Assembly (NCBI GenBank): GCA_031256975.1
Contig: JAIRPN010000018.1
Coordinates: 807-64,806 of the forward strand
DNA length: 64,000 bases
Reading direction: 5' to 3'
From: Verrucomicrobiales bacterium
GTDB lineage: Bacteria; Verrucomicrobiota; Verrucomicrobiia; Methylacidiphilales; JAAUTS01
Below are positions 40,877 through 58,290 of this stretch, in pieces (position 1 is the stretch's first letter; each line of letters starts with the position of its first letter). The position numbers and the translations under genes were made by a program. The notes beneath the pieces were generated by a model, which saw nothing but the letters and a program-made list of their open reading frames with translations, ran no database searches and was not told the DNA's origin.

Positions 40877-41203
40877 TCAGGCGGCGCGGGATTCCAGGTT
40901 GAGGATGGGTTTTCCCAAGGACTTCGCGTAGGAAATTTCCGCCTGCGCGCCCTTGCTGTCATGGGCGTTGGCCAGCGCCAGCACCACGTCGGCGCGGCGC
41001 ACCAGGATCATGCAGTGTTCCATGTAATGGTCGTACTGCCAGCCGAGCGGGAAATCCGCCGGGTTGAAGACCTGTCGCGCGCCGAGTTTAAGGGCCTCCT
41101 CGCGTGCCTGTTCAAAATAGCGCAGGTATTCCGCGCAATCGGTAATTTTGCCGCTGAGGTAAACAATTTTTTCTGCCAGGGTTGGCGAGGCGTTTGCTGT
41201 CAT
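40877..41203 (-). CDS. DUF4406 / nucleoside 2-deoxyribosyltransferase-like small protein
   Basis: IVYLSGKIT.., VFNPADF.. and ..ADVVLALANAHDSKGAQAEISYAKSLGKPI match the family pattern. Confidence 0.6.
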   Translation of the reverse strand: MTANASPTLAEKIVYLSGKITDCAEYLRYFEQAREEALKLGARQVFNPADFPLGWQYDHYMEHCMILVRRADVVLALANAHDSKGAQAEISYAKSLGKPILNLESRAA

Positions 41204-41222
41204 GATGCGTTGATCGGGTTGG

Positions 41223-41942
41223 TCATTGAGCCAATGATAGTTTGCCGGGATGTGCCGCGGCGACCTCGCGCTGGGCGGCGGCCAGGTCGGTTTGGAATTC
41301 TGGCGACTTTTGCATCAGCTCGAATAATTCCTGCGCCGCCAATCGGCCTGCCGCCACGTCGCTCGGGTAGTGCACGCCCGCCAACACCCGGTCGTCACCC
41401 ACCTGCCAGGCACGGGCGAGGATTTGCTGCCGCTCGTCAGGAACCAGTTCCGCCAACACCAGGCCCCAGGTCACCGCCAGTTCGGAATGTCCGCTCGGAT
41501 AGGACGCATTGTCTGGCTTTTCCACGCAGGGGTGAAGCCGGGGTTCCAATGCAAACGGACGCGGGCGGTTCCAGTAATTCTTTTGCAGCTCGGAAGAGAG
41601 TTTGCAGTCTTCTTTCACTTGGGTGAGTAACTTCGCCGTTAGCGGCAGTTTCTTTTCATCAAACCAAGTGCCCAGGGTTGACGCAAAGGCGCCAATGGCC
41701 AGATGCTCTTCCGATTTTGCCCGCATGATTTCCGCATCGGTACGCAGGCGCTGGAGTTCCAGCATGCCGATCAATTCCGATTTGGTGATCGAGGAATCAT
41801 TGGCCGGAGGCTGAACCAGGAATTGTTCAAAATGCAGTGCCGCCGGGTCGGCATAATGGTATTTGCCATCAGCCCAGGCATGCGGGGCGAGGCAGGCGGT
41901 GAACAGCAACAGGGCCAGGCAACGGATGATTTTTGCAGTCAT
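41223..41942 (-). CDS. secreted PAP2-family (class A) acid phosphatase
   Basis: Signal peptide is present. The PAP2 motifs are KNYWNRPRPF, YPSGHS and DRVLAGVHYPSDV. Confidence 0.8.
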   Translation of the reverse strand: MTAKIIRCLALLLFTACLAPHAWADGKYHYADPAALHFEQFLVQPPANDSSITKSELIGMLELQRLRTDAEIMRAKSEEHLAIGAFASTLGTWFDEKKLPLTAKLLTQVKEDCKLSSELQKNYWNRPRPFALEPRLHPCVEKPDNASYPSGHSELAVTWGLVLAELVPDERQQILARAWQVGDDRVLAGVHYPSDVAAGRLAAQELFELMQKSPEFQTDLAAAQREVAAAHPGKLSLAQ

Positions 41943-42018
41943 AAGATTTGATGGGAATCAACTAAAACGGTAGCCCGTGTCGATTTGCAGGCAGCCGGGT
42001 GACATTTCAACGGCAACA

Positions 42019-42051
42019 GGCCGCCAACTGTGAAGTTCACGGTTAGCGGCC
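42019..42051 (-). terminator. hairpin downstream of PEP-CTERM gene 1 (conserved with 43000..43032)
   Basis: On the minus strand, ggccgctaac-cgtgaacttcac-agttggcggcc is preceded by the conserved tttcccttgg. The U-tract is weak. Confidence 0.45.
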
Positions 42052-42109
42052 CAAGGGAAACCGATTTACAATTTAAACGATTGCTTGATTACGCTTTCTT
42101 GCGGCGCAA

Positions 42110-42766
42110 CTATGCCAAGACCAGAATACCTGCCCCCAAGCCCATCAAGGCATAGGTGGAGGGTTCCGGAATGGTGGCGATAACCGTGTAGCCAAGCACA
42201 ATATCATCAAGACGCCAGTTGGCTGACGAAGAGGTATTTCCTGACGTGCGGAGGCCGTCGATTTTGAAATACAGTGTGTTGCCAGTGCTAGTAAAGGACT
42301 GATCCAGTCCACTAAAAGCAGCCCAAACACCATCAGTGTTCGCAGCATACGAACCTATTGTCACGAAATTGAGGTTATCATTACTAACTTGCAGAGTGAT
42401 AGCAGTTGGTCCCGTAGCAGTACTCCTGCTATAGAAGCTGAGACTATCCAGTTGCAATTGAGCCGTGGGATCGCTCAGCGTCAGGCTGAAGCTGAAACCC
42501 ACATTTGTGCCGGCAGGTGACACCGCCGCGCCATAGTTATTGCCGCCGCTACCACCAATATTATTCGTGCTATTGGTGTAAATAATACTACCTGCATTAG
42601 TTATTGTACTTCCATAAAGGGCCAACGCGCCTCCACTTGAAATATCGGCTGGTGACGACAAGGTGCCATTTATGGACGAACCATCCCATGTAATAGTTGC
42701 CGCGTTCAACTCTCCCGCGAACACCATCGCAGCCGTGAGCATTACACCCATAATTATTTTCTTCAT
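42110..42766 (-). CDS. PEP-CTERM sorting-domain protein (C-terminal basic tail cut off by an in-frame TAG)
   Basis: ATG 42766 gives the signal peptide MKKIIMGVMLTAAMVFA. The C-terminus IPEPSTYALMGLGAGILVLA is followed by TAG, then by in-frame LRRKKA-TAA. Confidence 0.8.
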   Translation of the reverse strand: MKKIIMGVMLTAAMVFAGELNAATITWDGSSINGTLSSPADISSGGALALYGSTITNAGSIIYTNSTNNIGGSGGNNYGAAVSPAGTNVGFSFSLTLSDPTAQLQLDSLSFYSRSTATGPTAITLQVSNDNLNFVTIGSYAANTDGVWAAFSGLDQSFTSTGNTLYFKIDGLRTSGNTSSSANWRLDDIVLGYTVIATIPEPSTYALMGLGAGILVLA

Positions 42767-42853
42767 ACCTATTTTCTCCCTTGTTTTCTTAAATGGCGGG
42801 ATAAGTAGAACATGATGCGACAACAATCAGATGACTGCTGTGTTACATTTTTA
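42767..42853 (-). promoter_or_regulatory. conserved leader/promoter of PEP-CTERM gene 1
   Basis: By eye about 90% identical over about 85 nt to 43775..43861. It contains AGTCATCTGATTGT, CGCCATTTAA and the RBS AAGGGAG. Confidence 0.5.
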
Positions 42854-42999
42854 TGGTTTGTTGGAGTTGGAATTTTCCCTTTGGCCTGAGATTGATGGTT
42901 CCCAAAGATTTCCCATGACGGACTGGGCACAAAGCAAATAATCAGGCACCCAGAGAACGTTTCGTATTGCGATACGTATTTTAACATTCAACAAAAGCA

Positions 43000-43032
43000 G
43001 GCCGTCAACAGTGAATTTCACAGCTGACGGCC
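43000..43032 (-). terminator. rho-independent terminator of PEP-CTERM gene 2
   Basis: On the minus strand, ggccgtcagc-tgtgaaattcac-tgttgacggcc is followed by tgcttttgttg. Confidence 0.6.
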
Positions 43033-43054
43033 CAAGGGAAATTAAATGGGAGTT

Positions 43055-43774
43055 TTATGCTTTCTTGCGACGAAGTTGCGCTAGAACAAGAATGCCAGCT
43101 CCCATGCCGATCAAGGTGTAGGTAGAGGGTTCAGGAATGGCGAGAGTACTATAAGTTAGGACAACGTCATCAAGACCAACCATGGACCGAGATCCAGAAC
43201 CTCCCGCACCATCTCCAGAGTATGACCAAGTAAATGAAAAGGAATCACCAACTTGAAGGTCTAACCCTGTAAAAGTGATGCTATAACTCTGTGATGCAGC
43301 CATGGAGCCACCAGTGGTGCTGCCCACAGGAGAGGTGAAAGTATAGCTTGAATAATTACCCGGGATGCTGGAATTAAAGCTGAGCGTGGATTGCCTGCCT
43401 TGGACTCTCCAATCTTCGGCGGTCCAGCTAAGAGTAATACTGTCAAGAACCCCTCCGGTATTATTTGCAAAACTGATTGAAGCTGAAGCAACCAAACCGG
43501 CGGCACCACCGCTACCTAAGAATCCGAGTGCGTAGTCCGATCCGGTTCCCATGGCGTAAATACCGCCTGTGGAGGAAGAACCAGTAGTTCTGCCATTATA
43601 TAAAGACATACTGCCAATGCTCCAATCTGTTGGAGCACTAGTGCCCAAGTAACTATTAAAATCATAAGTGACGGTTCCACCAGTTCCCGTCAATGCAACT
43701 TGGGCTTGCGCCCCGAAAGAAGCTAATCCGATCAATACTGCCCCTAATGCAGCACCCTTCACCCAATTTTTCAT
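43055..43774 (-). CDS. PEP-CTERM sorting-domain protein
   Basis: ATG 43774 gives the signal peptide MKNWVKGAALGAVLIGLASFGAQA. The C-terminus is IPEPSTYTLIGMGAGILVLAQLRRKKA. Confidence 0.85.
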   Translation of the reverse strand: MKNWVKGAALGAVLIGLASFGAQAQVALTGTGGTVTYDFNSYLGTSAPTDWSIGSMSLYNGRTTGSSSTGGIYAMGTGSDYALGFLGSGGAAGLVASASISFANNTGGVLDSITLSWTAEDWRVQGRQSTLSFNSSIPGNYSSYTFTSPVGSTTGGSMAASQSYSITFTGLDLQVGDSFSFTWSYSGDGAGGSGSRSMVGLDDVVLTYSTLAIPEPSTYTLIGMGAGILVLAQLRRKKA

Positions 43775-43861
43775 AACTATTTTCCCTTGTTTTCTTAAAT
43801 GGCGGGATAAATAAAACATGGTGCAACAACAATCAGATGACCGCCGTGTTACATTTTCATG
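43775..43861 (-). promoter_or_regulatory. conserved leader/promoter of PEP-CTERM gene 2
   Basis: The minus strand reads aaaatgtaacacggcGGTCATCTGATTGTtgttgcacc..atcCCGCCATTTAAgaaaacaAGGGAaaatagttATG. GG-N8-TTG has sigma-54-like spacing. Confidence 0.5.
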
Positions 43862-43908
43862 TTTGGTTCAGATTTTGTGTGAAATATTCAAAAATCTGCT
43901 CCTTAAAT

Positions 43909-43941
43909 AAAAACTCCCTCGCGAAGCGTGAGGGAGTTTTT
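43909..43941. terminator. bidirectional rho-independent terminator
   Basis: The sequence is aaaaactccctc-gcgaagcgt-gagggagttttt. An A-run and a T-run flank a 7-bp GC-rich stem. Confidence 0.7.
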
Positions 43942-43961
43942 ATTGCAATGTAGATTTGTGT

Positions 43962-44744
43962 TTAAAGAATGACTGACTTTCTGCGATATCGTGCAAGGAA
44001 AATCAGTCCGGCGATGCCGGATGCCAGCAAGGCATAAGTCGAGGGTTCGGGAATATCAAGCAACTGGTAGTCCAGCATCAGGGTTTCCGCATTAAAGGTA
44101 TAGCCTGACCAGGTGGCGGACGAATAAGAGGCGGCGGCCGTGGCCACGATACGCAGGGTACCGTTGCTGTCGATCAAGTCATTCAGCAGGGCTTGTGTCG
44201 CGGGATCGGTCAGGTTGAAGGTGTAGGTATCCACCGTGCCGTTGGAGATCGGCGAGAAGTTGCCTTGTCCGAGGAAATATAATGTGCCCAGCTGTCCCCC
44301 GCTGCTGATGCCTTCCATGGTTCCATCGTTGCGCAGTGGTGATGAACCGTCGTTTAGGATGCTGGTGCTGGTATCACTTGCCAGGTAAAAGTTGATCGGT
44401 CCGGCGGCGCTGAAGCTGCTGTTGGCTTCGGTAAAGTTCAGCGTGATTTGGTTGAACAAATAATTCTGGCTGGAATCCAATCCAAGTTGCGGCGCGGAAA
44501 AGTCCACGACGCCAAAACTGTTGAAGGTGCCGCCGCCCTTGTCCGGGCCCTCGACGTTGAAATAGTTGAGTCCGTTGGCGCCAGTGCGCGGGCCGCTGGG
44601 CTGAACTGTGGCGTTGCTGTAGGCATAGGCCACGGCCGTGGTCGCCGCCGACAAGGTTGTTGTTCCCGATCCCCATAATGACATCGCCAAGGCCACACCC
44701 AAGAGCGATGTTTTTACCAAGGCTTGCGCCGTTGATTTTTTCAT
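43962..44744 (-). CDS. PEP-CTERM sorting-domain protein
   Basis: ATG 44744 gives the signal peptide MKKSTAQALVKTSLLGVALAMSLWG. The C-terminus is DIPEPSTYALLASGIAGLIFLARYRRKSVIL. Confidence 0.85.
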   Translation of the reverse strand: MKKSTAQALVKTSLLGVALAMSLWGSGTTTLSAATTAVAYAYSNATVQPSGPRTGANGLNYFNVEGPDKGGGTFNSFGVVDFSAPQLGLDSSQNYLFNQITLNFTEANSSFSAAGPINFYLASDTSTSILNDGSSPLRNDGTMEGISSGGQLGTLYFLGQGNFSPISNGTVDTYTFNLTDPATQALLNDLIDSNGTLRIVATAAASYSSATWSGYTFNAETLMLDYQLLDIPEPSTYALLASGIAGLIFLARYRRKSVIL

Positions 44745-44830
44745 GACTACTCTCCCAGTTAGTTTAAATGGCGAAACGGAGTACAACACCATTCAGGTAC
44801 AATTCAGTGACCGGCAAGTGACAATTTATG
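44745..44830 (-). promoter_or_regulatory. leader of PEP-CTERM gene 3 sharing the same spaced elements
   Basis: The minus strand reads attgtcacttgccGGTCACTGAATTGTacc..tttCGCCATTTAAactaactGGGAGagtagtcATG. GGTCA lies 68 nt from the ATG, exactly as in gene 2. Confidence 0.4.
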
Positions 44831-44855
44831 CGGCGGTGAATAAGTCCGGATAAGG

Positions 44856-45608
44856 TTATTCTTCCCTGACATAAGTGGTTTCCTTGCCGGTTTCGGTGAT
44901 ATACATTTGCGCGGCGGAAATAGGACCGGGACGAAAGACGAAAATCAGGAAATGGGTGCTGATCGGGGTGGTCATTGAAGATGGCGCGACCAGTTTGGTG
45001 GGGTCGGTCTGGCTTTCAGCGCGAAAGGTATCCAGCTTGAAAACCGGGGCATCTGCCGATGGGATAAAATCATCGATGGTTTTTTGCGCACCCGGTTGGA
45101 GGGTTTCATTGATAAAGCTGTCTTTGCTGGCCATGGTCAATGCCACCGGACCTTGGAGATCGAAGTTGAAAAACGCAAAGGTGCTGGGCGGAATTTTGTC
45201 GCCTTGCTTGGCTGCGGTCTTGGCGGTCAGTGTTTCGGCATGGCTGGGATTGGGAATTTTGACCCAGCGCGGGGGGAAGTCCTTGCTTCCCGGACTGCCG
45301 TAGATGGCGATGGTAACGGTTTCTCCGGAACTGACCGGGATGTTATCATGATAGACCGGCTTGCCGCTGAATCTTTCCTTGATGTCAATGGCCAACGGGC
45401 CTGCCTTTGCCGGACAAAAACCGCTGACATTGCCTGGAACGGAGCTTTTGATGGTACCCAGGTCACCAACCGTAATGCTGACTTCCTGGTCATAAACAAG
45501 AAAATAAGCGATGCGGATATTGGTGGGGCTTGGATTATTGCTGGGGACATTTTGCGCGGGCAATAAGGAGGTCAGTCCGAAGAAAAGAAGAAACAACGGG
45601 TATTTCAT
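44856..45608 (-). CDS. secreted hypothetical protein, last gene of the pseudopilin operon
   Basis: Signal peptide MKYPLFLLFFGLTSLLPAQ. The gene starts 5 nt after the stop of the 973-aa gene. Confidence 0.55.
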   Translation of the reverse strand: MKYPLFLLFFGLTSLLPAQNVPSNNPSPTNIRIAYFLVYDQEVSITVGDLGTIKSSVPGNVSGFCPAKAGPLAIDIKERFSGKPVYHDNIPVSSGETVTIAIYGSPGSKDFPPRWVKIPNPSHAETLTAKTAAKQGDKIPPSTFAFFNFDLQGPVALTMASKDSFINETLQPGAQKTIDDFIPSADAPVFKLDTFRAESQTDPTKLVAPSSMTTPISTHFLIFVFRPGPISAAQMYITETGKETTYVREE

Positions 45609-45613
45609 GATAT

Positions 45614-48535
45614 TTAGGGTTGTGAGGTAATCTTGATGCTATAGGTGATTTGGTTGGGACTGGTTGGGGTCCCGCTGCTGCCGCTGACCTGAACATTGGG
45701 AATCAAGTCGACAATGCAATTTTTGGCAGTGCGGGCCAGCACCCGGCCATTTTGGTCAAGGGCTTGTCCCTGGCTGTAAATGCGATAGCGGTAGGAACGG
45801 AAGGTGATGAGATGAGCCACCCGCCCAAAAGCCTCTTCACGGACGCGATCATTGCCGTCCAGTCGTTGAGTGACGGCGGCGCCGGTACCGCCGGCAAGTG
45901 AGACATTGGCCAGCCCGGAGACATTGTTATAAAGGCTGCCGGTCTTGCCCCAGATGGAGGGGGAGGGATTGTCGATCAACACACTGCTGTTAAGCTGGGA
46001 GGGAGTGTAACCGAGCAGGATGAAATCATTGAAATTGCGGAAGGGTTTGGCGTCGGTCCAAGCACCGGCAACCAGACGTTTGGCAATTTCAGGATTGATC
46101 GGGTTATCTGTCATTTTTAACTTGCTGCCGGTGAGGACAGGCTGGCCGGCGGGAGGCGTGCTGGCATAGGCGACGGGATAAAATTGTAAAAATTGGTTGC
46201 GCAGGTAGGACCAGAATGTTTGCAAGGGATTTAATGAGCTGTAGGTGGTATCCGTGAGGGTGCCGGGGCGCGGGACATTGACGTTGAGCCGGAGACGGTC
46301 GTTATTATTGTCGATGGTGAAAATTTCCAGCAAGGCCGCATCGGCTTTTTTCAGGTAGTTGGTATAATTGCTTCTGACGAAGGAATCAAATTGCCCGATG
46401 ACCAGGGTTTTAGTGCCGCGCGGCCGGCTGTCACCGGTTACCGTATCGAAAGTCGGATCAAAAATATTGCCAAGTTCGACAATATTTTGCATTGGCGCAT
46501 GAGCAATGTGTGTCGGGGCTGAATAGGGCGACTTGACATAACCACCGCCCGCACCGACGAGCGGCCGGTCAAACCAAGTGGTCATGTCTTGATAGGGAGA
46601 ACCGCCGCTGCCGCCGGTGGTATTGTTGGGAACACCGGGGGTGTGGCGTTCTTTGGCCATGGTTGCCCAACTGGAAAGGTAACGTCCCAAGGTTTCGCGG
46701 AGATCTTCGCTATTGCCACTCGAACCATAACCGGGTGAGCATCCTGATTTTCCGGTGGAATAAGAACCGCCCAGATTACAGGGCCAATAGGCATCAAGAA
46801 TCCGTGGCGTGCCGTTCATGGACTGGATAGTGGTGGAGCCATCATCATTAGTGATAATGGTGGGTGCGGCACCCTCGATGTAGAACAGTATAAAGCCCAT
46901 GGCTGTGCCACTGCCACTTTGGTTGGCTGCATTAAAGGAGGTGTTCTGCGAAGAATATACCGTATAGACCCTGGAAAGAGAAAAAGCGCGAAATTCGTTC
47001 GGGCTAAGGGTGATGGGCGTGGAAGAAATGGCGATATCTTCAGAGGATAGTTGTGGCACATAACCGTTAAGTGGCACACCCGAAACGGTGGAATGTTGTT
47101 GTGCAATGAAATGAATATAAAGATTGGGTACTGTGGATGGCGTATCGGCGGAATTCCAAAGCTCAATGATACGAGTCAAGCCAACCTGGGTTTTATAGGG
47201 ATTTGCTCCGCCAACATTGGTGACCAAATATTGTGGTGAGGCAGAGCTGGCGGTGCCGAAGTAGTAAAGAATTTCATTCACACGGGGCGTTGCGGCTATG
47301 CCGTACCAGAGATTGGGATTGCTGTAATTTCCCCAAATGGTGCTGCCCATGGTCTGGATGTTGTTGAAATAAGTTTGCAGGGAAGGTGAGAGCATTGGGT
47401 AGCGTTCGCTGCGGATATAATTGACAATCGAAGCGGCCAAGCGATTGGTTGTGCCCGGCACGCCGCCGCTGGCGGCACCGATAGTGGTTTCTTTGCGATT
47501 GTAAAAGTCAGGCAAACCATTCTGGATAAATTGGCTGATCGACGGTACTGCGGTGGTTGCGGCATCGGCAAGGGTTGCGGGGGTGGTGGCTACCACATTC
47601 ACATTCATCCTGGCTTCGCCGACCTTGGGGCCGTAGGCGATGAGGTTTTGCGGGTCGGGATAGGTACCGGTGCTTTGCACGGTTTCCTCGCGGGTGACGT
47701 CGACGGTGTAGAGGTTTTGGTTGGTGCCGCCACTTAGGGCGGCGACCGTTTGGGCCGGGGAACTGGGCGAAGGCCATATGGTGCTGCTGCGATAAGTAAC
47801 CAGAGTTTTTACATCTTCGGTAGAGAGCCCCTCAATTTTTAGATTGGTGGCATCGAGCGGAGCGTTGGGATCGTTGGGTTGCGCGACGGTCGGCGTGTAG
47901 GTGGTGGAAGTGGTGATGGTGCCGCTGACGTTGCCGACACGGCTGACATCGAGTTTGGAGGATTCGTCATCGACCCAGTAGGCGTAGCGGCCGTAAGTGC
48001 CGCTGGTATTGGGGGCGTTGCTGCCGAGGTAAATCCAGCCGGCCGGGTAGGAGCCGCCACCGGGGTCGATTTGTTTATTGGCATTCATGTCCACACTGGC
48101 GGTGGAGGAGAGGGCCATGATTTCGTTGGGACCGAGGTTGGCGGGCAGGGAGTTGGAACTGGAGGAAACCAGCCAGTAGGTGTTGGGAGCGGTGCCGCTG
48201 GTGTTGGTGAAGTCGCCGTTGAGCACGTCCTGGGAAATTGCGACGTAGAAGGGGCGGAAGTCGTTGTTGTTGGAATATCCCCAGGTGACGAAACCCTTGG
48301 CGGCGTTGGTGCCGGTGGGTACGGCCTGCAGGATTTTGGAAATGGCGGATTGCTGTGCGGCCTCGGCCATGGCGTCTGCCTTCAGTTTGTTGAGGTAGGC
48401 GCGCGAGGTCAGGCGGTCGGTGCGCATGGACTGCAGGAACACCACCACCATGACGGTGAGGATGGTGAGGACCAACAGGGTGCTGATGAGGGCGAAGGCG
48501 CGCGCGTGAGGATGACGATGGATGGCAGGCATCAT
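45614..48535 (-). CDS. giant GspK/PilX-like minor pseudopilin-position protein (973 aa)
   Basis: The N-terminus HARAFALISTLLVLTILTVMVVVFLQS is a pseudopilin-like hydrophobic helix without Glu+5, as in GspK/PilX. The gene sits in the K position after the H-I-J-like genes. The remainder is T/S/N/G/P-rich. Confidence 0.6.
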   Translation of the reverse strand: MMPAIHRHPHARAFALISTLLVLTILTVMVVVFLQSMRTDRLTSRAYLNKLKADAMAEAAQQSAISKILQAVPTGTNAAKGFVTWGYSNNNDFRPFYVAISQDVLNGDFTNTSGTAPNTYWLVSSSSNSLPANLGPNEIMALSSTASVDMNANKQIDPGGGSYPAGWIYLGSNAPNTSGTYGRYAYWVDDESSKLDVSRVGNVSGTITTSTTYTPTVAQPNDPNAPLDATNLKIEGLSTEDVKTLVTYRSSTIWPSPSSPAQTVAALSGGTNQNLYTVDVTREETVQSTGTYPDPQNLIAYGPKVGEARMNVNVVATTPATLADAATTAVPSISQFIQNGLPDFYNRKETTIGAASGGVPGTTNRLAASIVNYIRSERYPMLSPSLQTYFNNIQTMGSTIWGNYSNPNLWYGIAATPRVNEILYYFGTASSASPQYLVTNVGGANPYKTQVGLTRIIELWNSADTPSTVPNLYIHFIAQQHSTVSGVPLNGYVPQLSSEDIAISSTPITLSPNEFRAFSLSRVYTVYSSQNTSFNAANQSGSGTAMGFILFYIEGAAPTIITNDDGSTTIQSMNGTPRILDAYWPCNLGGSYSTGKSGCSPGYGSSGNSEDLRETLGRYLSSWATMAKERHTPGVPNNTTGGSGGSPYQDMTTWFDRPLVGAGGGYVKSPYSAPTHIAHAPMQNIVELGNIFDPTFDTVTGDSRPRGTKTLVIGQFDSFVRSNYTNYLKKADAALLEIFTIDNNNDRLRLNVNVPRPGTLTDTTYSSLNPLQTFWSYLRNQFLQFYPVAYASTPPAGQPVLTGSKLKMTDNPINPEIAKRLVAGAWTDAKPFRNFNDFILLGYTPSQLNSSVLIDNPSPSIWGKTGSLYNNVSGLANVSLAGGTGAAVTQRLDGNDRVREEAFGRVAHLITFRSYRYRIYSQGQALDQNGRVLARTAKNCIVDLIPNVQVSGSSGTPTSPNQITYSIKITSQP

Positions 48536-49314
48536 GGGTTGAGGTTGACGCGCAGGCGGAACAGCTGCGCGTTTTGTGATTTTACGGTTTCCATCGTATT
48601 GGAATTGGTCCAGTCCTGGGCGCTGGTGAATTTCTGCGCGGTGTCGTAGTTGTAGGCGCGCAGGCTGATGTCAAAGAAGGCGGGCTGGGTGTGGTAATCG
48701 CCGTCGTCGAGCTGGATCGGGTCAGCGTCGCCCGTGTAGCGCTGGATGAAGAAGTCGATGACGTTGCGGGCGATGATTTCGTCGCCGCCGGTGCTGCGGG
48801 TGGCGTTGGCGGATGGGAACAGCAGGGCGTTGGGGTCGCTCATCAGCGCGAGCAGTCCCCCGGTGGCGTTGCTCCAGGTGGTGTTGCTGCTCTTGAAGTA
48901 GCGGTGCAGGTTGTAGGCGCCGCGGTTGATGCCGTTGCTGGGACTGGTGTAGGCGATGTAGTAGCCCACGGCGCAAAGGTCGCTGTTGCTGAGCGTGGGA
49001 TCCTGGGCGTCGCTGCCGGAAGTGGTGATGAAGAAGATTTTATCACCATGTTCCGGCGGGGCGAAGCTGCCGTCTCCGTTATTGTCGATTGCCGGGTTTT
49101 TGTAGAAGGGAATGCGCGAGGTGATCCTGGCGTTTTGCAGGTCGTGGCTGAGGTAATACAGCGCAGCCCGCGCCTCGCTGTAGGCGTTGACTTTGCTTTC
49201 GCTGCTTTTCCAGGTGTGGGTGGCTTGCGAAAAAAAGGAGAACAACAGCAGGATCAGGATGGCCAGGACGCTGGTGGCAACCAGCAGTTCGATCAGGGTG
49301 AAACCGGTTTGCAT
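48532..49314 (-). CDS. prepilin-type N-terminal cleavage/methylation domain protein (GspJ-position pseudopilin)
   Basis: ATG 49314 gives MQTGFTLIELLVATSVLAILILLLF (G/FTLIE). Confidence 0.75.
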   Translation of the reverse strand: MQTGFTLIELLVATSVLAILILLLFSFFSQATHTWKSSESKVNAYSEARAALYYLSHDLQNARITSRIPFYKNPAIDNNGDGSFAPPEHGDKIFFITTSGSDAQDPTLSNSDLCAVGYYIAYTSPSNGINRGAYNLHRYFKSSNTTWSNATGGLLALMSDPNALLFPSANATRSTGGDEIIARNVIDFFIQRYTGDADPIQLDDGDYHTQPAFFDISLRAYNYDTAQKFTSAQDWTNSNTMETVKSQNAQLFRLRVNLNP

Positions 49315-49333
49315 GGCGGAAGACTGTGTTTCT

Positions 49334-49412
49334 GGTGATGGGAATATGGGGTTCCCGTGAGGGGAACAACATGTTTTGGTGACGGGAATGCGGGGTTCCC
49401 GTGAGGGGAACA
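49334..49412 (-). repeat. tandem 44-nt-period repeat, each unit carrying a hairpin, within the pseudopilin operon
   Basis: ggtgatgggaatatggggttcccgtgaggggaaca (49334..49368) is repeated as ggtgacgggaatgcggggttcccgtgaggggaaca (49378..49412). Each unit contains GTTCCC-N5-GGGAAC. Confidence 0.8.
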
Positions 49413-49474
49413 CGTGCTTCCAAGGACGGGATTCCAGCCTGGTGAAATGATTGTACGAAAGAAAATGACCGGAT

Positions 49475-50056
49475 TCATAACTCGGGAACGATCAGGGTGA
49501 CGAACACTTGTTTTTTGCGGTCGACAGGTTTGGCGGCGGCGGGCCATTCGACGGTGAGGGTGACGCGGGAGTAGTTGTAGGCGGTGGCGGGGTTGTTGTC
49601 GGGGTTGTAAGCGGCGCTGAGGCGGCTGATATAAAAGGCGGTGGCGACGCTGGTGCCGTTGTTGTAATCGGCGGCGCCGTTGAGGGTGCGCAGGGGGGTG
49701 CCGTTGTTGTCAAAGACGATATACAAGGGGTTCGCGTCATTGGTGTCGGCAAGGTTGAATTGGGTGGAGCGGGAGCTGGTGACCAGGGCGGTGTTGGCTT
49801 GCTCGGAGGTGACCTGCGAGAGGATTTCACGGTTGTTGCGGTTGCCGGTGTCGGCACGGGACTGGATTTCCGCCAGCAGGGACTGGGCGATGAAGGTGGC
49901 GCGGGTGTCGCTCTTGCTGTCGCTGGCGGTATTGAGCGCCAAGGGGAACAGCATCAGGATGGCCACCAGGGCATAGGTCAGGATGGAGAGGGCGAGAACG
50001 ACTTCGATCAGACTGAATCCATGACGGCCGGTGGGTGCGGAACTGCGGGCGGTCAT
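49475..50056 (-). CDS. prepilin-type N-terminal cleavage/methylation domain protein (GspI-position pseudopilin)
   Basis: MTARSSAPTGRHGFSLIEVVLALSILTYALVAIL (G/FSLIE). Confidence 0.75.
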   Translation of the reverse strand: MTARSSAPTGRHGFSLIEVVLALSILTYALVAILMLFPLALNTASDSKSDTRATFIAQSLLAEIQSRADTGNRNNREILSQVTSEQANTALVTSSRSTQFNLADTNDANPLYIVFDNNGTPLRTLNGAADYNNGTSVATAFYISRLSAAYNPDNNPATAYNYSRVTLTVEWPAAAKPVDRKKQVFVTLIVPEL

Positions 50057-50058
50057 AA

Positions 50059-50697
50059 TTACTGTAGCGTGGCGAGGTCCATTTCCGCGCGCCCGGTGAA
50101 GCGCTGGAAGGTGATGCGGTCGAAGTAGGTGGAGTTCTTGGTCATCAGCGTGTCGCGGTTGTTGGCGAACACGCCTTCATAAAGATACAGGCAGAGGTTT
50201 GCGGGATTCGACGGGGTCCTGATGGCGCCGGTGGGGGTATAGACGATGGACGGCAGGGAGGCGCCGGAATTGAGCTGCGGCAGGTTGCCGGAGGGAATCG
50301 AAAGCACGGCGGTGCCGTCCTGGAACAGCGAGGTGCAGTCGCGCTTGAAGGAAATATTCTTGGGCAGGAACATCCACTTGGTCACGGCGACGTATTGCAC
50401 CCCGGCGGGGTCGCTGTCCACGCGGTCGCGGAAGATAATATAGGCGTGATAGGGGAAGTCGGTGCCGAGCTGGCTGAGCGACTGGTCGGCAAAGCCGACG
50501 TAGGCATTGACGCCGTTGGTGAGGGCGGCGATGCGCGCCTGCTCGAAGGCGTTGAGCAAGGTGTTGACCGCGCCCTGGCGGCCGGTGGAGTTCGACATGG
50601 AATTGATGGCGGGCAGGGCGGTGGCCATCAGGATGGCCATGACCGACACGACAGTCAGCGTTTCCAGCAGAGTGAAACCTTGTTTGTTTTTATTCAT
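50059..50697 (-). CDS. prepilin-type N-terminal cleavage/methylation domain protein (GspH/FimT-position pseudopilin)
   Basis: ATG 50697 gives MNKNKQGFTLLETLTVVSVMAILMA (G/FTLLE). Confidence 0.75.
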   Translation of the reverse strand: MNKNKQGFTLLETLTVVSVMAILMATALPAINSMSNSTGRQGAVNTLLNAFEQARIAALTNGVNAYVGFADQSLSQLGTDFPYHAYIIFRDRVDSDPAGVQYVAVTKWMFLPKNISFKRDCTSLFQDGTAVLSIPSGNLPQLNSGASLPSIVYTPTGAIRTPSNPANLCLYLYEGVFANNRDTLMTKNSTYFDRITFQRFTGRAEMDLATLQ

Positions 50698-50885
50698 GGG
50701 CAGCAATGTGACACGCCCGTGTTCCGTTCGTATCAACGTCGTGTAACAAGTCGGTGTCATTTTCGCCGCCAATATGAGAATAGCGGCAATGCTTTCGTGT
50801 GCTTTTCCCTTTCGCGGATTTCGCTTTGCAGAATCGTGACGGAATGGACACGGGGCTGTCGCAATCGGCCGGCAGATTTTCCAGA

Positions 50886-53648
50886 ATGAAGGGAGGTTGT
50901 TGCAAAGGAGCGCTGGGGCTCGTCGTGTTGTCAGGTCTGCTGGCGATGGCGACGTGTTGCCGGGCGCAACAGCAGCCCGCGGCGATGACCGCCCACGACA
51001 CTCTGGAAGCCGGTTTCATGGCGTTCCGGACTGCCGATTACAAGAAGGCGGAGTCGGTGCTCAATGATTTCCTGCGCGATTACGGCAAGAGCGCCGAGGC
51101 CAAGCAGTATTTGTCGAAGGTGCTGGAACTGCTGTCTTTTTCGCAAATCCGGCTGGGCAAATATGACGACGCCTTGGAAACCATTGCCCGTTATCTGCAG
51201 GAATACCCGGAAGGTGACGAGGCGGAGTCGCTGTCCTTCTGGCAGGGCATCTCCCTGCTGCGGGTGGAGAAATTTGACGAATCGAAAAGCGCGCTGGAAG
51301 CCTTCCTGAAGAAATATCCGCGCAGCAGCAAGGCGGACGATGCGCGTTACGCGATCGGCCTCGACCTGTTGAAGAACGGCAAGTATCGCGAGGGAGCGGA
51401 TTATTTCGTGAACCTGGCGCCGCAACTGAAACCGGACATGGCTTATGAGGCATTGGTGCTCGCGTTGTACGGTTACGTGGAAGGCGACGACCGCGACCGC
51501 GCGCTGGAACTGGTCCTGAAGATCGACCCGCTCAGCCCGCAGGCCAACAAATTGGCGGTGTATCATTTGCTGGCGTTGAACCTGGGCAGCCGCCTGTTGC
51601 AGAAGGGCGAGGACCGCAAGTCGCTGCTGGCCTTGCAACGGGTCTGGGGCAAGGACAAGATTTTGTCGCGGCAGCAACAGAAGCTGGCCGAGTTGCAGGC
51701 CAGGCAGCAGCAACAGGCCAATGACAAGAACGCCGATCTTTACCAGCAAAGCCGCCTGGCGGAGGTGATCGGGGAAATCCAGGGCGAGATCAAGCAGCTG
51801 AACAAGATTCCCGATTATGACACCGCGCTGCAATTTCGCATCGCCCAAGCCTATATCCATCTCAATCGCTACCGCGAGTCCTATCTGGTGTTGCGGCAGA
51901 TGGCCAATAAGTTGCCGGACAGCGAGATGCTGATGCAGGCGGAATACACCATGGTCTATTGCCTGGTGTACATGGAGCGCTGGGACGAAGTGGTGAAAGC
52001 GGCGGCGGAATTTGAAAAGCGGTTCCCGAAATCCTCGCAACTGGCGCTGGTGTTGTACCTGCGCGGCGAATCCTGCCGCCAGATGGAGGACTACGCGGGC
52101 GCCTATGAAGTGTTCTCACGCATCGGCAAGGATTTTCCCGACAGCCAGTATGCCGAGCGTTGCGCCTTTCTGGCGGGTTATGTGTTGCTGATGCAGGACA
52201 GGAATCCCGAGGCGACCGCGCAATTCCAGGATTACATCAAGAAATACCCGCAGGGGGTGTTGCTGGAGAAGGCTTATTACTGGCTGGCGATGTCGTACCA
52301 TTATAACAAGGATTACGAGCAGAGCCGCGCGGCGCAGAAAAGTTACCTCGATCATTACCCCAAGGGCCAATATGTGGCGGACAGCAATTTCCGCCGCGCG
52401 CAGGCCCTCTTCAACCAGAAGAATTTTGTCGACGCCTACAAGGAGCTGGAAAACTGCCTGAAGCAGTTTCCGAAATACGAGCGGCTGGACGAGTTGAAAA
52501 CGCAACTGGGCGACTGTTATTTTGCGCTGGGGGAAATCGACCGCGGGCTGGCGGTGTATCAAAGCACCTCGCTGAAGGATCCGGGCCTGTACGATTACGC
52601 GGTGTTCCGCGAGGGACAGGCCTACAAGACCCGCGAGGAGTACGACAAGCTGCTGGCGCTGTTCCAGAAGTTTCTCACCGATAGGCCCAATAGCCCGCGC
52701 CTGACCGAGGCTTTGTCGCAGATCGCGTGGTATTACCGTTCCAAGGGTGATGCCGGCAAGGCGGCGGAGATTTACTGGCAGGCGGTCCGCGACCACGGTG
52801 ATGATCCGGAAGCTGCTGGCGTGGAGGATATGCTGCGCACGCTGGCGAAGTATTACCGCCAGCCGGATGAAAAACAGAAGTTTGTCATCCGCCTGCAGTC
52901 GATGGCGGAGCAGGAGGCGGCCAAGCGCCCAACCCTGACGGCGCGAGTGCACTGGATGCTGGCGCAACTGGCACAGAAGGAAAACCCGGCCTCGGCGGAC
53001 CAGCAGTTGCTGGCGATCAAGCAAAACCTTGATTTGCGCAAGCTGAGTCCCTTGCTGCTGGTTGATGTTGGCGATGCGGCGTTGCGCCTTGGCAGGACGG
53101 ATGACGCGAAGGAATGTTACCGGACGCTGATTTCGTGGTATCCGACCTCGATGTTGAAGGATCGCGGCTACGTGGGCATGGGCTTGGTGGCCAGGGCGGC
53201 GGGTAACAACGACGAGGCCTTGTCGTACTTCGCGTTGTTCGACAAGAATGATTTCCAGTCGATGGAGAAGCCGCGGGTGCTGCGCGCCAAGGCGGATATT
53301 TATCTGGACCAGAACAAGCCGGAGCTGGCCTTGGAACAATTGGAGACTTTGCTGGCCATGCCGATCACCAAGGGCCGCAATGCGGTGGAAGCCTTGTACC
53401 AGATCGGCAGCATCCGCCTGTCGCTGGGCGATGCGAAGAAGGCGATACCTTATTTCCAGCGCATCTATGTGATGTATTCGCGCTGGAGCGATTACACCGC
53501 CAAGGCTTACTGGAGCAGCGGGCAGGCCTTTGAAAAATTGAACATGACCGAGGAAGCGCGCAAGACCTACCAGGAATTCATCGGCCAGGACAATCTGAAA
53601 CAAACGGCGGAATACGCCAGGGCACAGGAGCGCTTGAAGGCTTTATGA
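50886..53648 (+). CDS. secreted giant TPR-repeat protein (920 aa from ATG 50886)
   Basis: The internal ATG gives the signal peptide MKGGCCKGALGLVVLSGLLAMATCCRA. TPR-like repeats run throughout (YPKG.., YAERCAFLAGY.., AYYWLAMSYH..). Confidence 0.8.
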   Translation: MKGGCCKGALGLVVLSGLLAMATCCRAQQQPAAMTAHDTLEAGFMAFRTADYKKAESVLNDFLRDYGKSAEAKQYLSKVLELLSFSQIRLGKYDDALETIARYLQEYPEGDEAESLSFWQGISLLRVEKFDESKSALEAFLKKYPRSSKADDARYAIGLDLLKNGKYREGADYFVNLAPQLKPDMAYEALVLALYGYVEGDDRDRALELVLKIDPLSPQANKLAVYHLLALNLGSRLLQKGEDRKSLLALQRVWGKDKILSRQQQKLAELQARQQQQANDKNADLYQQSRLAEVIGEIQGEIKQLNKIPDYDTALQFRIAQAYIHLNRYRESYLVLRQMANKLPDSEMLMQAEYTMVYCLVYMERWDEVVKAAAEFEKRFPKSSQLALVLYLRGESCRQMEDYAGAYEVFSRIGKDFPDSQYAERCAFLAGYVLLMQDRNPEATAQFQDYIKKYPQGVLLEKAYYWLAMSYHYNKDYEQSRAAQKSYLDHYPKGQYVADSNFRRAQALFNQKNFVDAYKELENCLKQFPKYERLDELKTQLGDCYFALGEIDRGLAVYQSTSLKDPGLYDYAVFREGQAYKTREEYDKLLALFQKFLTDRPNSPRLTEALSQIAWYYRSKGDAGKAAEIYWQAVRDHGDDPEAAGVEDMLRTLAKYYRQPDEKQKFVIRLQSMAEQEAAKRPTLTARVHWMLAQLAQKENPASADQQLLAIKQNLDLRKLSPLLLVDVGDAALRLGRTDDAKECYRTLISWYPTSMLKDRGYVGMGLVARAAGNNDEALSYFALFDKNDFQSMEKPRVLRAKADIYLDQNKPELALEQLETLLAMPITKGRNAVEALYQIGSIRLSLGDAKKAIPYFQRIYVMYSRWSDYTAKAYWSSGQAFEKLNMTEEARKTYQEFIGQDNLKQTAEYARAQERLKAL

Positions 53649-54580
53649 ACGCGCGTTGTCTGGTCATTGGCGGATTGTTGCTGGGTGGCTGCCTGTCATT
53701 GCGGGCGGATGTGATCACGCTCAAGAGCGGACAGAATGTGGAGGGCAAAATTGCCGGGACCGATGGCAAGACGCTGACGGTGGAGTCGGACGTGGCGGGA
53801 CAGCGTGCGCAGGTGAAGTATCCGCTGGCATTGGTCGACAAGCTGGTGTTTGTCGATGATGACGCCACCAAAACCCTGCTTGCCAGCAATGACCCGAAAG
53901 ATCTTCCGGAGCTGGCGAAATTATGGGAGTCGCGGCAGGTCTTTCTCGGCCAGCCGGAAAGCAACGCCGGTGCGGTGGCATTGGCCTACGCAAGGTTGCT
54001 GCTGAAGAGCGGCGGTGACTTGAACCAGGTGCTGGCCCTTAGCGCCGAGGTGGAATCGGGGGACTGGCAGGTTGCGAGAAAACCCGAGGCGACCCGCCTG
54101 CGACTGGCGGTCTTGGTGAAGAGCGGCAAATCCGACCAGGCTTTGGCCGAGGCGGAGAAGATCGGCAGTGCAGCCGGTGCGGACGATGACACCCTGCTGC
54201 AAGCGCAGGTGCAGGCGCGTTTTACCGGTGCGGAAGTGGCCTGGGCCAAATTGCAACAACTGGAACGCGATTGGCCGAAGTGGGCGCTCATGCCCGACAA
54301 GCGGGTCGAGCGTCAGCATTTGCTGGACAAAACCCTGGATGGATTTTTGTATCCGGTGGTGTTCCAGAGCCAGCTCAGGAACCTTTGCGCCGAGGGATTG
54401 TATCGCAGCGCCGAGATCGAGTGCCTGACCGGCAGCCTGGCGAACGCGGCGGTCCACGTGCAGGAAATCATCACTTATTACGCCAACGACGAGTTCAAGG
54501 CCAAGGCGGAAAATTTAATCAAACAATACCAACTCACCCTCCCGGCAAAGGGCGGGGACAACAAGGGGAAGAACTCATGA
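53645..54580 (+). CDS. putative lipoprotein, hypothetical
   Basis: MNARCLVIGGLLLGGCLS has a lipobox LGGC. It overlaps both neighbours by 4 nt. Confidence 0.55.
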   Translation: MNARCLVIGGLLLGGCLSLRADVITLKSGQNVEGKIAGTDGKTLTVESDVAGQRAQVKYPLALVDKLVFVDDDATKTLLASNDPKDLPELAKLWESRQVFLGQPESNAGAVALAYARLLLKSGGDLNQVLALSAEVESGDWQVARKPEATRLRLAVLVKSGKSDQALAEAEKIGSAAGADDDTLLQAQVQARFTGAEVAWAKLQQLERDWPKWALMPDKRVERQHLLDKTLDGFLYPVVFQSQLRNLCAEGLYRSAEIECLTGSLANAAVHVQEIITYYANDEFKAKAENLIKQYQLTLPAKGGDNKGKNS

Positions 54581-57330: not shown

Positions 57331-58290
57331 ATGAATATCAAAAGAAGAATCCTGGTCTTAACTTGGTTGTCACTGGCCTTGCCGGCCTTCGCGCTGGTGC
57401 CGCCGAAAATTTCCGCGCCGGAAACATCGGTGCCGCAGGATGCGGCGGCGGTGGAAAGCGGGTCATCGTTCGTGCTGGGTTCGTGGAACATGGAATGGTT
57501 TCCCGGTCACAGCCCGAAAGTGGAGAAGAGCCAGAAACAGATCGACGCGGTGGAGAAGGTGTTGGACGAAGAAAAACCTGCCATTTTCATGTGCTGTGAG
57601 ATACGCGGCCTTGGGGCCTTGAAGTTGTTGCAACTGGATTATCCCTACATGGCCTGTACCAATATTCCGCGCGTTGCCGAAGCCGCGCAGCAAAGTGCGG
57701 GAACTTTGCCGATGCAGGGGATTGGTTTGCTCAGCAAGGTGCCGTGGAAGGAAGTCTGGACGCTGGATTTCAGCGAATTGCCCGAGGCGCCGGAACGTCC
57801 GCCGCGCGGGGTGTTGGGCGCTTTGTTCGTATTGCCCAACGGACGGCAGCTGACGGTTTACGGGGTGCACTTGAAAAGCAACCGCGGTGACGCGGAAACT
57901 GACCGGATGGAGCGGGAAAGCGCGATTGATTACATTGAATGGGACTGGCAACGCCGCCAGCTCGACCCGGCCAAGGACAACATTGTGATCATGGGCGATT
58001 TCAATACTTCACCGAACGACCCGAAATTCGCCGAGGAAAAAACCATCCGCCGTTTGCTGTCAGCGGGTTTTGTCAGCGCGGCGCAGGGATTGCCGGCGGA
58101 GCAGCGGACCACCCTGCCGGGCAAGGGCAAATATCCCGACAATGATTTTGACCATATCCTGATTTCCTCGTCCTTGCGGGCGCTAATGGCGGGCGATCCG
58201 CCGTGGCTCAAGATTGTCAAGGTTCCCGAGGCGGCCAGCGATCACAATGCGCTGTTCCTGGATGTCACGAATTGGGTTGCGCCGAAGTAA
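57331..58290 (+). CDS. secreted endonuclease/exonuclease/phosphatase (EEP) family protein
   Basis: Signal peptide is present. SWNMEWF, CCEIR, VYGVHLKS, IMGDFN, DHILIS and SDHNALFLDV are present. Confidence 0.8.
   Translation: MNIKRRILVLTWLSLALPAFALVPPKISAPETSVPQDAAAVESGSSFVLGSWNMEWFPGHSPKVEKSQKQIDAVEKVLDEEKPAIFMCCEIRGLGALKLLQLDYPYMACTNIPRVAEAAQQSAGTLPMQGIGLLSKVPWKEVWTLDFSELPEAPERPPRGVLGALFVLPNGRQLTVYGVHLKSNRGDAETDRMERESAIDYIEWDWQRRQLDPAKDNIVIMGDFNTSPNDPKFAEEKTIRRLLSAGFVSAAQGLPAEQRTTLPGKGKYPDNDFDHILISSSLRALMAGDPPWLKIVKVPEAASDHNALFLDVTNWVAPK

Follow-up and report, generated by a model that had tools for sequence, protein, structure and literature searches.

The closest described relative of the locus analysed here is the Verru_Chthon cassette, a set of curated NCBIfam/TIGRFAMs families (TIGR02596 for protein D, TIGR02598 for B, TIGR02599 for C and TIGR02600 for A) in which three prepilin-type genes accompany a giant gene whose product has a pilin-like N-terminus. 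The cassette is confined to Verrucomicrobiota and occurs in many copies per genome; no paper citing the Verru_Chthon family names was found in the literature searched. A second point of comparison is the GspH-I-J-K group of minor pseudopilins of the type II secretion system (T2SS), represented by GspIJK of enterotoxigenic Escherichia coli (PDB 3CI0) and XcpUVWX of Pseudomonas aeruginosa. We analysed a 64,000-nucleotide stretch of DNA (hereafter the window) from a Verrucomicrobiales bacterium (assembly GCA_031256975.1, contig JAIRPN010000018.1, positions 807 to 64,806), in which five genes at 44856-50697 resemble both systems.

Several sets of minor pilins can be used with one machine. In Myxococcus xanthus, three minor-pilin sets with PilY1 prime distinct filaments on one machine (PMC7541494), and in cyanobacteria several sets, such as the EPS and Com sets of Synechocystis, are likewise used with one machine, with a PilX that carries an extra beta-solenoid (PMC13759059). 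A domain-enlarged K/PilX subunit was proposed to replace PilY1 in its capping role (PMC13759059, PMC7541494). Pilins of the PilK family invariably lack Glu+5 and are apical, and in CpaL of the Caulobacter Tad pilus, as in GspK, a C-terminal strand completes the N-terminal pilin sheet (PMC13533445). ComZ of Thermus is a tip-associated DNA receptor (PMC6561018). A massive expansion of pseudopilins, with induction alongside a polysaccharide locus, was described in an Opitutales isolate (PMC13274419).

We propose that these genes are a satellite cassette that supplies the tip (initiation) complex of a type IV filament, which could be a T2SS pseudopilus or a type IV pilus, and that they represent a third, remote class of Verru_Chthon cassette. 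We estimate the probability that this joint reading is correct at roughly 0.6.

The five-gene locus and its relatives

The locus consists of five intact, co-oriented open reading frames (ORFs) on the minus strand, taken from the ORF map with their most likely starts, that encode a D-like, a B-like, a C-like and an A-like protein and a small protein that we call X. An initial annotation, made from the letters of the window, had described this locus correctly, including its coordinates. The D-like gene (50059-50697, minus strand) encodes a GspH-like minor pseudopilin of 212 residues with the N-terminus MNKNKQG/FTLLE and a Pfam N_methyl match of 28 bits. Its longer matches were below the cut-offs: 18.8 bits for Pfam GspH over residues 68-192 (cut-off 21), 29.8 for TIGR02596, the Verru_Chthon D model (70), and 22.9 for the NCBIfam GspH model (80). 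The B-like gene (49475-50056, minus strand) encodes a GspI/PilV-like minor pseudopilin of 193 residues (GRHG/FSLIE) that matched XpsI (31.1 bits), GspI (27.7; cut-off 44.35), TIGR02598 (27.5; cut-off 51.4) and PilV (27.1), in each case under the cut-off and chiefly through its N-terminal part. The C-like gene (48532-49314, minus strand) encodes a GspJ-like minor pseudopilin of 260 residues (MQTG/FTLIE), for which we obtained 61.1 bits with TIGR02599, the Verru_Chthon C model (cut-off 256.5), 32.2 bits with HpsC and 24.6 bits with GspJ (cut-off 64.85; residues 37-152 in the numbering of the 293-residue listed ORF). The A-like gene (45614-48535, minus strand) encodes a giant GspK/PilX-like candidate cap protein of 973 residues with the N-terminus HARA/FALISTLLVL, and the X gene (44856-45608, minus strand) encodes a DUF4397-like candidate partner of 250 residues with a Sec-type signal peptide read from the sequence.

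The class III signals of the D-, B- and C-like proteins are GFTLLE, GFSLIE and GFTLIE, and that of A is AFALIS, which lacks Glu at +5. Both Pfam N_methyl and TIGR02532 recognised the three small proteins, in agreement with the three canonical prepilin N-termini that the initial annotation had read. Its description of the fourth protein also held: the pilin-like helix has Ser at +5, and Thr, Ser, Asn, Gly and Pro make up 42.9% of the 973 residues vs 24% in five ordinary proteins of the window. So did its co-transcribed secreted protein, which follows on the same strand after a 5-nt gap with a signal peptide. The H-I-J-K-like gene order that it proposed was recovered as an order of matches (GspH, then GspI/XpsI/PilV, then GspJ/HpsC), but only at weak scores below the cut-offs; NCBIfam ComG models, also weakly, matched along the same order. 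As to the other junctions, the D-like and B-like genes are 2 nt apart, the B-like and C-like genes are separated by a 160-nt spacer, and the C-like and A-like genes overlap by 4 nt (ATGA), suggesting that these two are translationally coupled.

All four pilin-like proteins of the window matched their counterparts D, B, C and A of the Verru_Chthon cassette as the best or near-best model. The match of A to TIGR02600 (43.0 bits, cut-off 332.3) covered only residues 15-75. When profiles were compared with hhalign, the family of A matched the canonical cassette protein A with a probability of 100% (E 1.5e-45; 377 columns, query 5-396 vs 14-586), so that its first 400 or so residues are homologous to canonical A, and no relation to canonical A was detectable in the last ~570 residues. 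By sequence comparison, the five-gene set is a remote branch of the curated, uncharacterised Verru_Chthon superfamily, and a non-member by the curated thresholds. It differs from the canonical cassette in gene order and in its extra, conserved, DUF4397-like fifth gene.

The genome (2.76 Mb in 19 contigs, 87% complete, in which the window's contig, C18, measures 102.9 kb) contains ten giant A-like genes of three classes and at least nine sets of flanking pilin genes. The canonical class (on contig C15, twice on C9, and on C5) encodes proteins of 1253-1448 residues with 891-1087 bits on TIGR02600, and its gene order is B-C-A-D in three sets and B-C-D-A on C5, in contrast to D-B-C-A in the window. 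In the C15 set, where the family assignment was checked, C, B and D scored 349.7, 59.2 and 138 bits, all above the cut-off. Class 2 (twice on C14, and on C8 and C1) encodes proteins of 1223-1281 residues that are about 30% identical among themselves; it matched the family of A with an hhalign probability of 99.8% (E 8e-30). Class 3 consists of the window's protein and one encoded on C12, which match each other in the N-terminal part (E 3e-13) and the C-terminal part (E 1e-10). The sister cassette on C12 (C12:54994-60412) is reduced; it comprises a gene for a secreted EEP-family nuclease/phosphatase, one I-like pilin gene, the K-like giant gene and a gene for a 260-residue secreted protein, followed by a TatC-like gene. 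The initial annotation had presented the set as a stand-alone operon, which does not agree with its membership of the superfamily and with ten such giant genes in one genome. The A-like protein is indeed three times the usual size of GspK, as had been stressed there, but 800-1450 residues is normal in the superfamily, and the size is a family trait.

On C15, we also observed an orphan D-B-C trio (C15:90819-92942) that is followed by an unrelated 273-residue ORF and no giant A-like gene. Homology of X with the fifth genes of class 2 was considered and rejected (hhalign probability 2%), and the recurrence of "A plus X" across classes is thus one of position and not of family.

Searches outside the genome gave very different numbers of relatives, depending on the method. 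A word-seeded protein search with A returned 6 matches, as did one with a 34-sequence profile. When a profile built from the four closest proteins was used for a full HMMER scan of public data, 987 clusters (at 50% identity) were matched at E <= 1e-3, of which 310 reached 1e-10 and 36 reached 1e-30; most were of 800-1200 residues. We then scanned for the motif R[YF]A[YF]WVDD, derived from a 4-sequence alignment, in one genome for each of 185,579 species, and confirmed 67 loci, all in Verrucomicrobiota (Verrucomicrobiales, Chthoniobacterales, Terrimicrobiaceae and Methylacidiphilales), with full-length relatives at 13 of them. Cultured carriers of family members include Verrucomicrobium spinosum, Chthoniobacter flavus and Verrucomicrobium sp. 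BvORR034/BvORR106. The related genomes are incomplete, fragmentary metagenome-assembled genomes (MAGs; 77-92% complete). Two to five prepilin-type genes precede the giant gene in most of 30 related loci scanned. Of the 12 mapped loci at which the relative is full-length, 11 have a same-strand gene for 130-300 residues after the giant gene. Nine of 15 such fifth genes matched DUF4397, mostly below the cut-off.

The exact order D-B-C-A-X was found in the window and on three metagenome contigs, L025, L026 and L027, which together represent four lineages and whose large proteins are 65, 53 and 50% identical to A of the window. That the same five-gene order recurs on three contigs suggests more than chance. 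In addition, L027 carries two consecutive A-X pairs (L027:4242-11725), whose A proteins are 30% and 50% identical to that of the window, and L029 carries an A-X pair followed by a second A (L029:7908-14956). These tandem copies suggest that the cassettes diversify by duplicating the cap module.

The A-like protein and the assembly machinery

We compared the profile of the A family with a 37-sequence GspK alignment. The hhalign probability was 96.7% (E 4.6e-10, 218 columns), and dissection of the match showed that the N-terminal helix holds most of the signal (97%, E 5e-11). A second block, in which RMNVNV...IAASIVNYIRSERYP of A is aligned with FNLNAL...DWIDxD of GspK, gave 67% (E 5e-5), and residues 410-600 of A had no GspK counterpart. 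With a single GspK sequence against the family profile, the helix alone was aligned, with a probability of 11%. The family consensus RG-ALI-TL resembles the GspK motif QRGVAL--VL. Pfam PilX_N was matched by 10 of 45 family members and T2SSK or T2SSK_1st by none of the 45; the sister protein encoded on C12 was above the Pfam T2SSK cut-off (26.2 bits).

Structure prediction with AlphaFold2 from a 45-sequence alignment gave a model of A with a mean predicted local distance difference test score (pLDDT) of 70.7 and a predicted template modelling score (pTM) of 0.78. The predicted elements are a helix (11-71), a sheet (82-190) that ends in an invariant WVDDES, a helical module (312-391), a beta-sandwich (417-599), low-confidence loops, a second module of an NVN motif plus helices, and three conserved C-terminal strands (916-971); in this layout, the pilin-like N-terminal module spans residues 1 to about 200. 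When residues 1-415 were modelled separately, the pLDDT was 67.5 and the pTM fell from 0.78 to 0.46 with the removal of the C-terminal part. In the model, the C-terminal strands may rejoin the N-terminal sheet. A would then resemble CpaL, which also has an N-terminal pilin-like domain, a large middle part and conserved C-terminal strands, and the strands of A could complete the pilin sheet in the same way; unlike this layout, the sequence and fold of A have no detectable similarity to CpaL or ComZ. The Foldseek matches listed for the full model were only generic Ig/FN3-like sandwiches, obtained through residues ~417-599, and PDB sequence-profile searches with A gave chance-level matches. Pfam did not detect the C-terminal beta-propeller of PilY1 (PF05567) in A, and no propeller was among the fold matches listed.

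Taken together, A is K-like by its position, its N-terminus and its motifs, and at most putatively so by its fold. With GspH-I-J-K, the locus shares the gene order, the G/F..E signals of the first three proteins, and an apical-type subunit without Glu+5 whose N-terminus is of the RG/A-AL-I-L type and in which NxN motifs are followed by helical modules. It differs in that the K-like protein has three times the size and contains an inserted beta-sandwich and long loops of low confidence, in that gspC, D, E, F, G, L and M are all missing from its vicinity, and in that the genome has ten sets, not one.

The initial annotation had noted the absence of assembly genes from the window. We found this to be so for the whole 102.9 kb of C18, where profile searches gave no match to a T2SSE ATPase, a T2SSF platform protein, a secretin or a peptidase A24, and where the sole match to the GspG model, that for a major pseudopilin, was the cassette's own D-like gene. 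It had also named a genome lacking any such machinery as an outcome that would refute its reading, and this does not apply, since PilB/GspE, GspF/PilC, PilT and a prepilin peptidase are all encoded elsewhere. Two adjacent PilB/GspE ATPases (635 and 620 bits) and a GspF/PilC protein (424.9 bits) lie at C4:97469-102114, two PilT-like ATPases on C12, a second GspF-like gene with a pilin gene at C8:70203-71936, GspG-like pilins on C2 and C9, a single copy of the prepilin peptidase (Peptidase_A24) at C8:459488-460306, and ComEC on C9. Near the PilB/GspE-GspF genes on C4, the searches detected no secretin. The PilY1 search (PF05567) was silent in this genome but also in the control genomes, so that absence is not shown.

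From these data, we infer the following assembly path. The genome's prepilin peptidase would cut the D-, B- and C-like proteins, which would assemble like GspH, GspI and GspJ. A would take the apex, like GspK or PilX, the only position open to a subunit that lacks Glu+5. Its conserved N-terminal pilin-like module, probably together with the C-terminal strands, would dock on the trimer, while its helical and beta-sandwich modules would be shown at the fibre tip, with the secreted DUF4397-like X as their partner. The complex would be loaded on the PilB/GspE-PilC/GspF machine encoded on another contig, which it would have in common with about nine other cassettes. If the machine is common to all of them, the tip of the fibre would differ from cassette to cassette. 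This arrangement would resemble the multi-set pili of Myxococcus and Synechocystis, where several H-I-J-K-like sets, few machines and a domain-enlarged K/PilX are also found; it would differ in that there are ten sets here vs two or three, in that the extra domains are not the same, and in that the present system is known from genes alone.

A number of results weigh against a tip cassette of the Verru_Chthon type. All four curated cut-offs were missed widely, and no experimental study of any member of the superfamily was found in the literature searched. Residue -1 of A is Ala and not Gly. The GspK signal past the N-terminal helix is weak, and the C-terminal segment LITFRSYRYRIY, which is collinear with the v-S-yF strand of GspK, had a probability of 2-7%, which is not significant. 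Both models of A are of medium confidence only. GspK, XcpX, PilX, PilY1 and ComZ were not among the best 50 Foldseek matches listed against the PDB for the full model, nor were GspK, XcpX, PilX or PilY1 among the 8 matches for residues 1-415. The initial annotation had held that a large protein with no structural similarity to GspK/PilX/PilY-type tip proteins would count against its assignment, and this is what both Foldseek searches returned; its K-like assignment holds at the N-terminus, by the lack of Glu+5, by PilX_N and by hhalign. As to the machine, the only secretin in the 87%-complete genome belongs to a Tad-type locus (C10:28000-35215), where it adjoins a TadA/CpaF-like ATPase and two TadB/C-like genes, and clear PilM, PilN or PilO proteins were not found in the assembly. 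Finally, the association of class-3 cassettes with nuclease genes (described below) was noticed after the fact, and seven more distant members of the subfamily have housekeeping neighbours (fumarase, GlgE, kinases) and no nucleases.

Sequence variation and the island character of the cassette

We aligned the window with its closest relative, the metagenome contig L025, and found that conservation changes abruptly within the A gene. DNA identity was 80-97% at 50720-47571, fell at about codon 322 of A to 45-70% or to unalignable sequence at 47570-42171, and returned to 75-84% at 42170-40800, 5.4 kb after the drop; inside the A gene, the fall was from ~87% to 45-65%. The hypervariable segment (42170-47570, minus strand) thus covers codons ~322-973 of A, the X gene, across which DNA identity was low, and three PEP-CTERM genes, which were essentially unalignable. 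At the protein level, the D-, B- and C-like proteins were 82, 91 and 90% identical to those of L025, the flanking PAP2 and DUF4406 proteins were 87 and 83% identical, and X was 40% identical. Within A (65% overall), windows of 50 residues were 64-92% identical in the first 350 residues, with 80-92% in six of the seven, and beyond these the values were 34-66% at 351-700, 82% at 701-750, 48-56% at 751-900 and 88% at 901-950. In the beta-sandwich block, the window is nearer to the more distant protein P0003 (62%) than to P0002 (49%), which is its nearest relative elsewhere; by this comparison, the block appears as a segment with a history separate from that of the rest of A. Regardless of relatedness, the X proteins of the window, of L025, of L026 and of the second L027 copy shared 31-42% identity, and their identity to the first L027 copy was 22-28%; leaving that copy aside, the X of the window and its orthologues were 38-42% identical however close the organism.

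In the simplest reading of these alignments, the cassette has a conserved assembly core, made up of the D-, B- and C-like proteins and the N-terminal module, the SIGELG/NVN block and the C-terminal strands of A, and a displayed module, made up of the middle of A, X and the PEP-CTERM genes, that is either swapped by recombination or very fast evolving. The pattern fits an exposed binding surface or tip, and hints that X acts together with the variable part of A.

The three PEP-CTERM surface proteins (42110-44792, minus strand; identified by Pfam/NCBIfam PEP-CTERM matches) are possible co-varying partners. PEP-CTERM genes also follow A-X in L025, L026, L027, L029 and L033, and L025 has one where the window has three. 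Any functional link between the cassette and these genes would be putative. At 42001-44000, across the PEP-CTERM genes, the G+C content is 46% vs 53-61% elsewhere in the window.

The cassette also stands out in its motif content and its distribution. The hexamer TTAGCG/CGCTAA occurs at 1.75 copies per kb genome-wide and is missing from 42043-54039, a stretch of 11,996 bp in which about 21 copies are expected and which spans the PEP-CTERM genes, the cassette, a TPR gene and a gene for 311 residues; no other gap in the window exceeds 3 kb. The other cassettes of the genome have 0.16 to 3.8 copies per kb. An orthologue of the window cassette was present in one of four same-genus genomes (G002, to which contig L026 belongs), at 59% amino acid identity. 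Its DNA was 65-66% identical, and the flanking ClC and CstA genes were 75-78% identical in all four genomes. The C12 sister cassette was found in all four, at 57-63% identity. As judged from these distributions, the window cassette is accessory and probably mobile.

The motif-free island and the patchy distribution in the genus point to a recent acquisition. In another reading, A would lie outside any filament, on the surface or in the periplasm, anchored by an uncut N-terminal helix and independent of the pilins, or the whole island would be a decaying acquisition. Ala at -1 of A and the lack of a pilin fold match would agree with this. However, none of the five frames is broken, and the order D-B-C-A-X persists at identities as low as 50% and in different families of the phylum. 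The conservation of the N-terminal module of A equals that of the D-, B- and C-like proteins (80-92%), as expected if they co-assemble, and the ATGA overlap suggests that A is translationally coupled to the C-like gene. We consider this explanation very improbable, and retain the tip cassette as the more likely reading of the locus.

The spacer between the B-like and C-like genes (49315-49474, minus strand) contains two 44-nt units with the hairpin GTTCCC-CTCAC-GGGAAC. Tandem Repeats Finder reported a period of 44, 1.9 copies and a 90% match, and a search of the whole genome found this hairpin only in the spacer. Over its first ~100 nt, the window's spacer shares ~93% identity with that of L025 (L025:1249-1382), where one degenerate copy remains, and the B/C gap is just 10 nt in the relative whose A protein is 53% identical. 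An Rfam search with the 160 nt gave no match. To go by its sequence, the hairpin could be an attenuator or a processing site inside the operon. In the divergent intergenic region upstream of the cassette (50698-50885, from the ORF map), no sigma-70-like site was seen, and the promoter and terminator scan was uninformative, as it gave fewer promoter-like sites than did shuffled sequence.

Neighbouring enzymes and possible ligands

A TPR/ExbB/ExbD/ExbD/VWA/EEP operon starts divergently 100-190 nt upstream of the cassette. The divergent pairing pointed out in the initial annotation is thus present in the window, but it is not conserved in relatives, and we rejected the ExbBD/TPR/VWA operon as a part of the system for this reason. 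Secreted enzymes such as those on both sides of the cassette recur beside class-3 cassettes. Genes for an EEP-family nuclease (57331-58290, plus strand) and an S1/P1 nuclease (minus strand), identified with Pfam, lie at 57331-59290 and are convergent, with a 26-nt 3' overlap at 58265-58290; downstream of the cassette are a gene for a PhoC-like, PAP2-matching acid phosphatase and a DUF4406 gene (40877-41942, minus strand). The EEP, S1/P1 and PAP2 proteins all carry signal peptides, as read from the sequence.

The sole paralogue of the EEP gene, 50% identical, precedes the C12 sister cassette at a distance of 37 nt, and BLAST searches of the genome returned two such EEP genes, one S1/P1 gene and one PAP2 gene of this type, all within 10 kb of the two class-3 cassettes. 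Among relatives, PAP2 follows the cassette in L025, L026 and L050: L025 has PAP2 and DUF4406 as neighbours, L026 has S1/P1 and PAP2, and L050, a Terrimicrobiaceae MAG, has SNase and PAP2 directly after X. L027 has SNase upstream and Endonuclease_1 downstream, and in L106, from another family of the order, SNase directly follows two X-like genes. Given the housekeeping neighbours of the seven more distant members, the nuclease link is partial and confined to part of the subfamily.

To judge from the neighbouring genes, the tip would most likely have as its ligand or cargo nucleic acid or phosphoester from outside the cell, or else the nucleases and phosphatases that break these down. A nucleic-acid or phosphoester theme, in the form of DNA capture or of secretion of these enzymes, is a tentative suggestion with the odds somewhat against it, and the "DNA receptor / cargo" idea of the initial annotation becomes a lead, since nucleases recur beside class-3 cassettes. 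In its specific form, in which the cassettes on C18 and C12 would build a filament for extracellular nucleic acid, and the distal cap and its DUF4397-like partner would capture DNA or RNA or escort nucleases and phosphatases, the idea is doubtful.

DNA capture could also be the task of a retractile type IV pilus, in transformation or DNA foraging, with the cassette as its tip set and the giant cap as a DNA receptor like ComZ of Thermus or ComP of Neisseria. The genome has PilT-like ATPases and ComEC, four nuclease families recur beside class-3 cassettes, the frequent TTAGCG/CGCTAA (1.75 per kb) would be an uptake-signal-like motif, and ComZ is a precedent for an enlarged, DNA-binding tip pilin (PMC6561018). 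Yet A matched ComZ, ComP or FimT neither in fold nor in sequence and is not basic (66 Lys+Arg vs 64 Asp+Glu), and nucleases are absent beside the seven distant members. A cassette that lies in a 12-kb motif-free block and is patchy in the genus is also a poor fit to a core species-specific uptake receptor. We regard such a pilus as rather unlikely.

The same neighbours could instead be the cargo of a T2SS pseudopilus whose tip, encoded by the cassette, adapts the piston to the nearby-encoded nucleases, PAP2 phosphatase and PEP-CTERM proteins. The best matches of the small proteins were to T2SS GspH, I and J and to the cyanobacterial Hps secretion pseudopilins, the S1/P1, EEP and PAP2 proteins have signal peptides, and T2SS substrates are often encoded beside gsp genes, as is chiA in E. 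coli K-12. GspK is not known to have a direct role in the choice of cargo, which counts against such a tip. In the Opitutales isolate, which has 67 PulG-like copies, a pseudopilin is induced with an alginate-degradation locus (PMC13274419). But no GspC, L, M, D set was found in the genome, the sole secretin is in the Tad-type locus, and PEP-CTERM proteins are normally sorted by exosortase and not by the T2SS. A cargo-selecting tip of this kind is unlikely.

Multiple minor-pilin sets per machine and enlarged K-like tip proteins are already known in principle. What is new is a third cassette class with the order D-B-C-A and a DUF4397-like partner, the separation of a conserved, putative assembly core from a putatively swappable and exposed module, and a functional lead, in which secreted nucleases and phosphatases would be partners. 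Verrucomicrobia are major polymer degraders in soil, water and guts, and about 2% of this small genome is taken up by giant-capped pilin cassettes. If one machine does carry ten alternative tips, no known example of one machine with several primed filaments would be as extreme. If the class-3 filament does handle nucleic acid, it would mean pilus-based foraging on extracellular DNA for phosphorus or nucleosides, or uptake, in Verrucomicrobia, and an arms race over an exposed receptor, with phages for instance, would lie behind the swapping of caps among close relatives.

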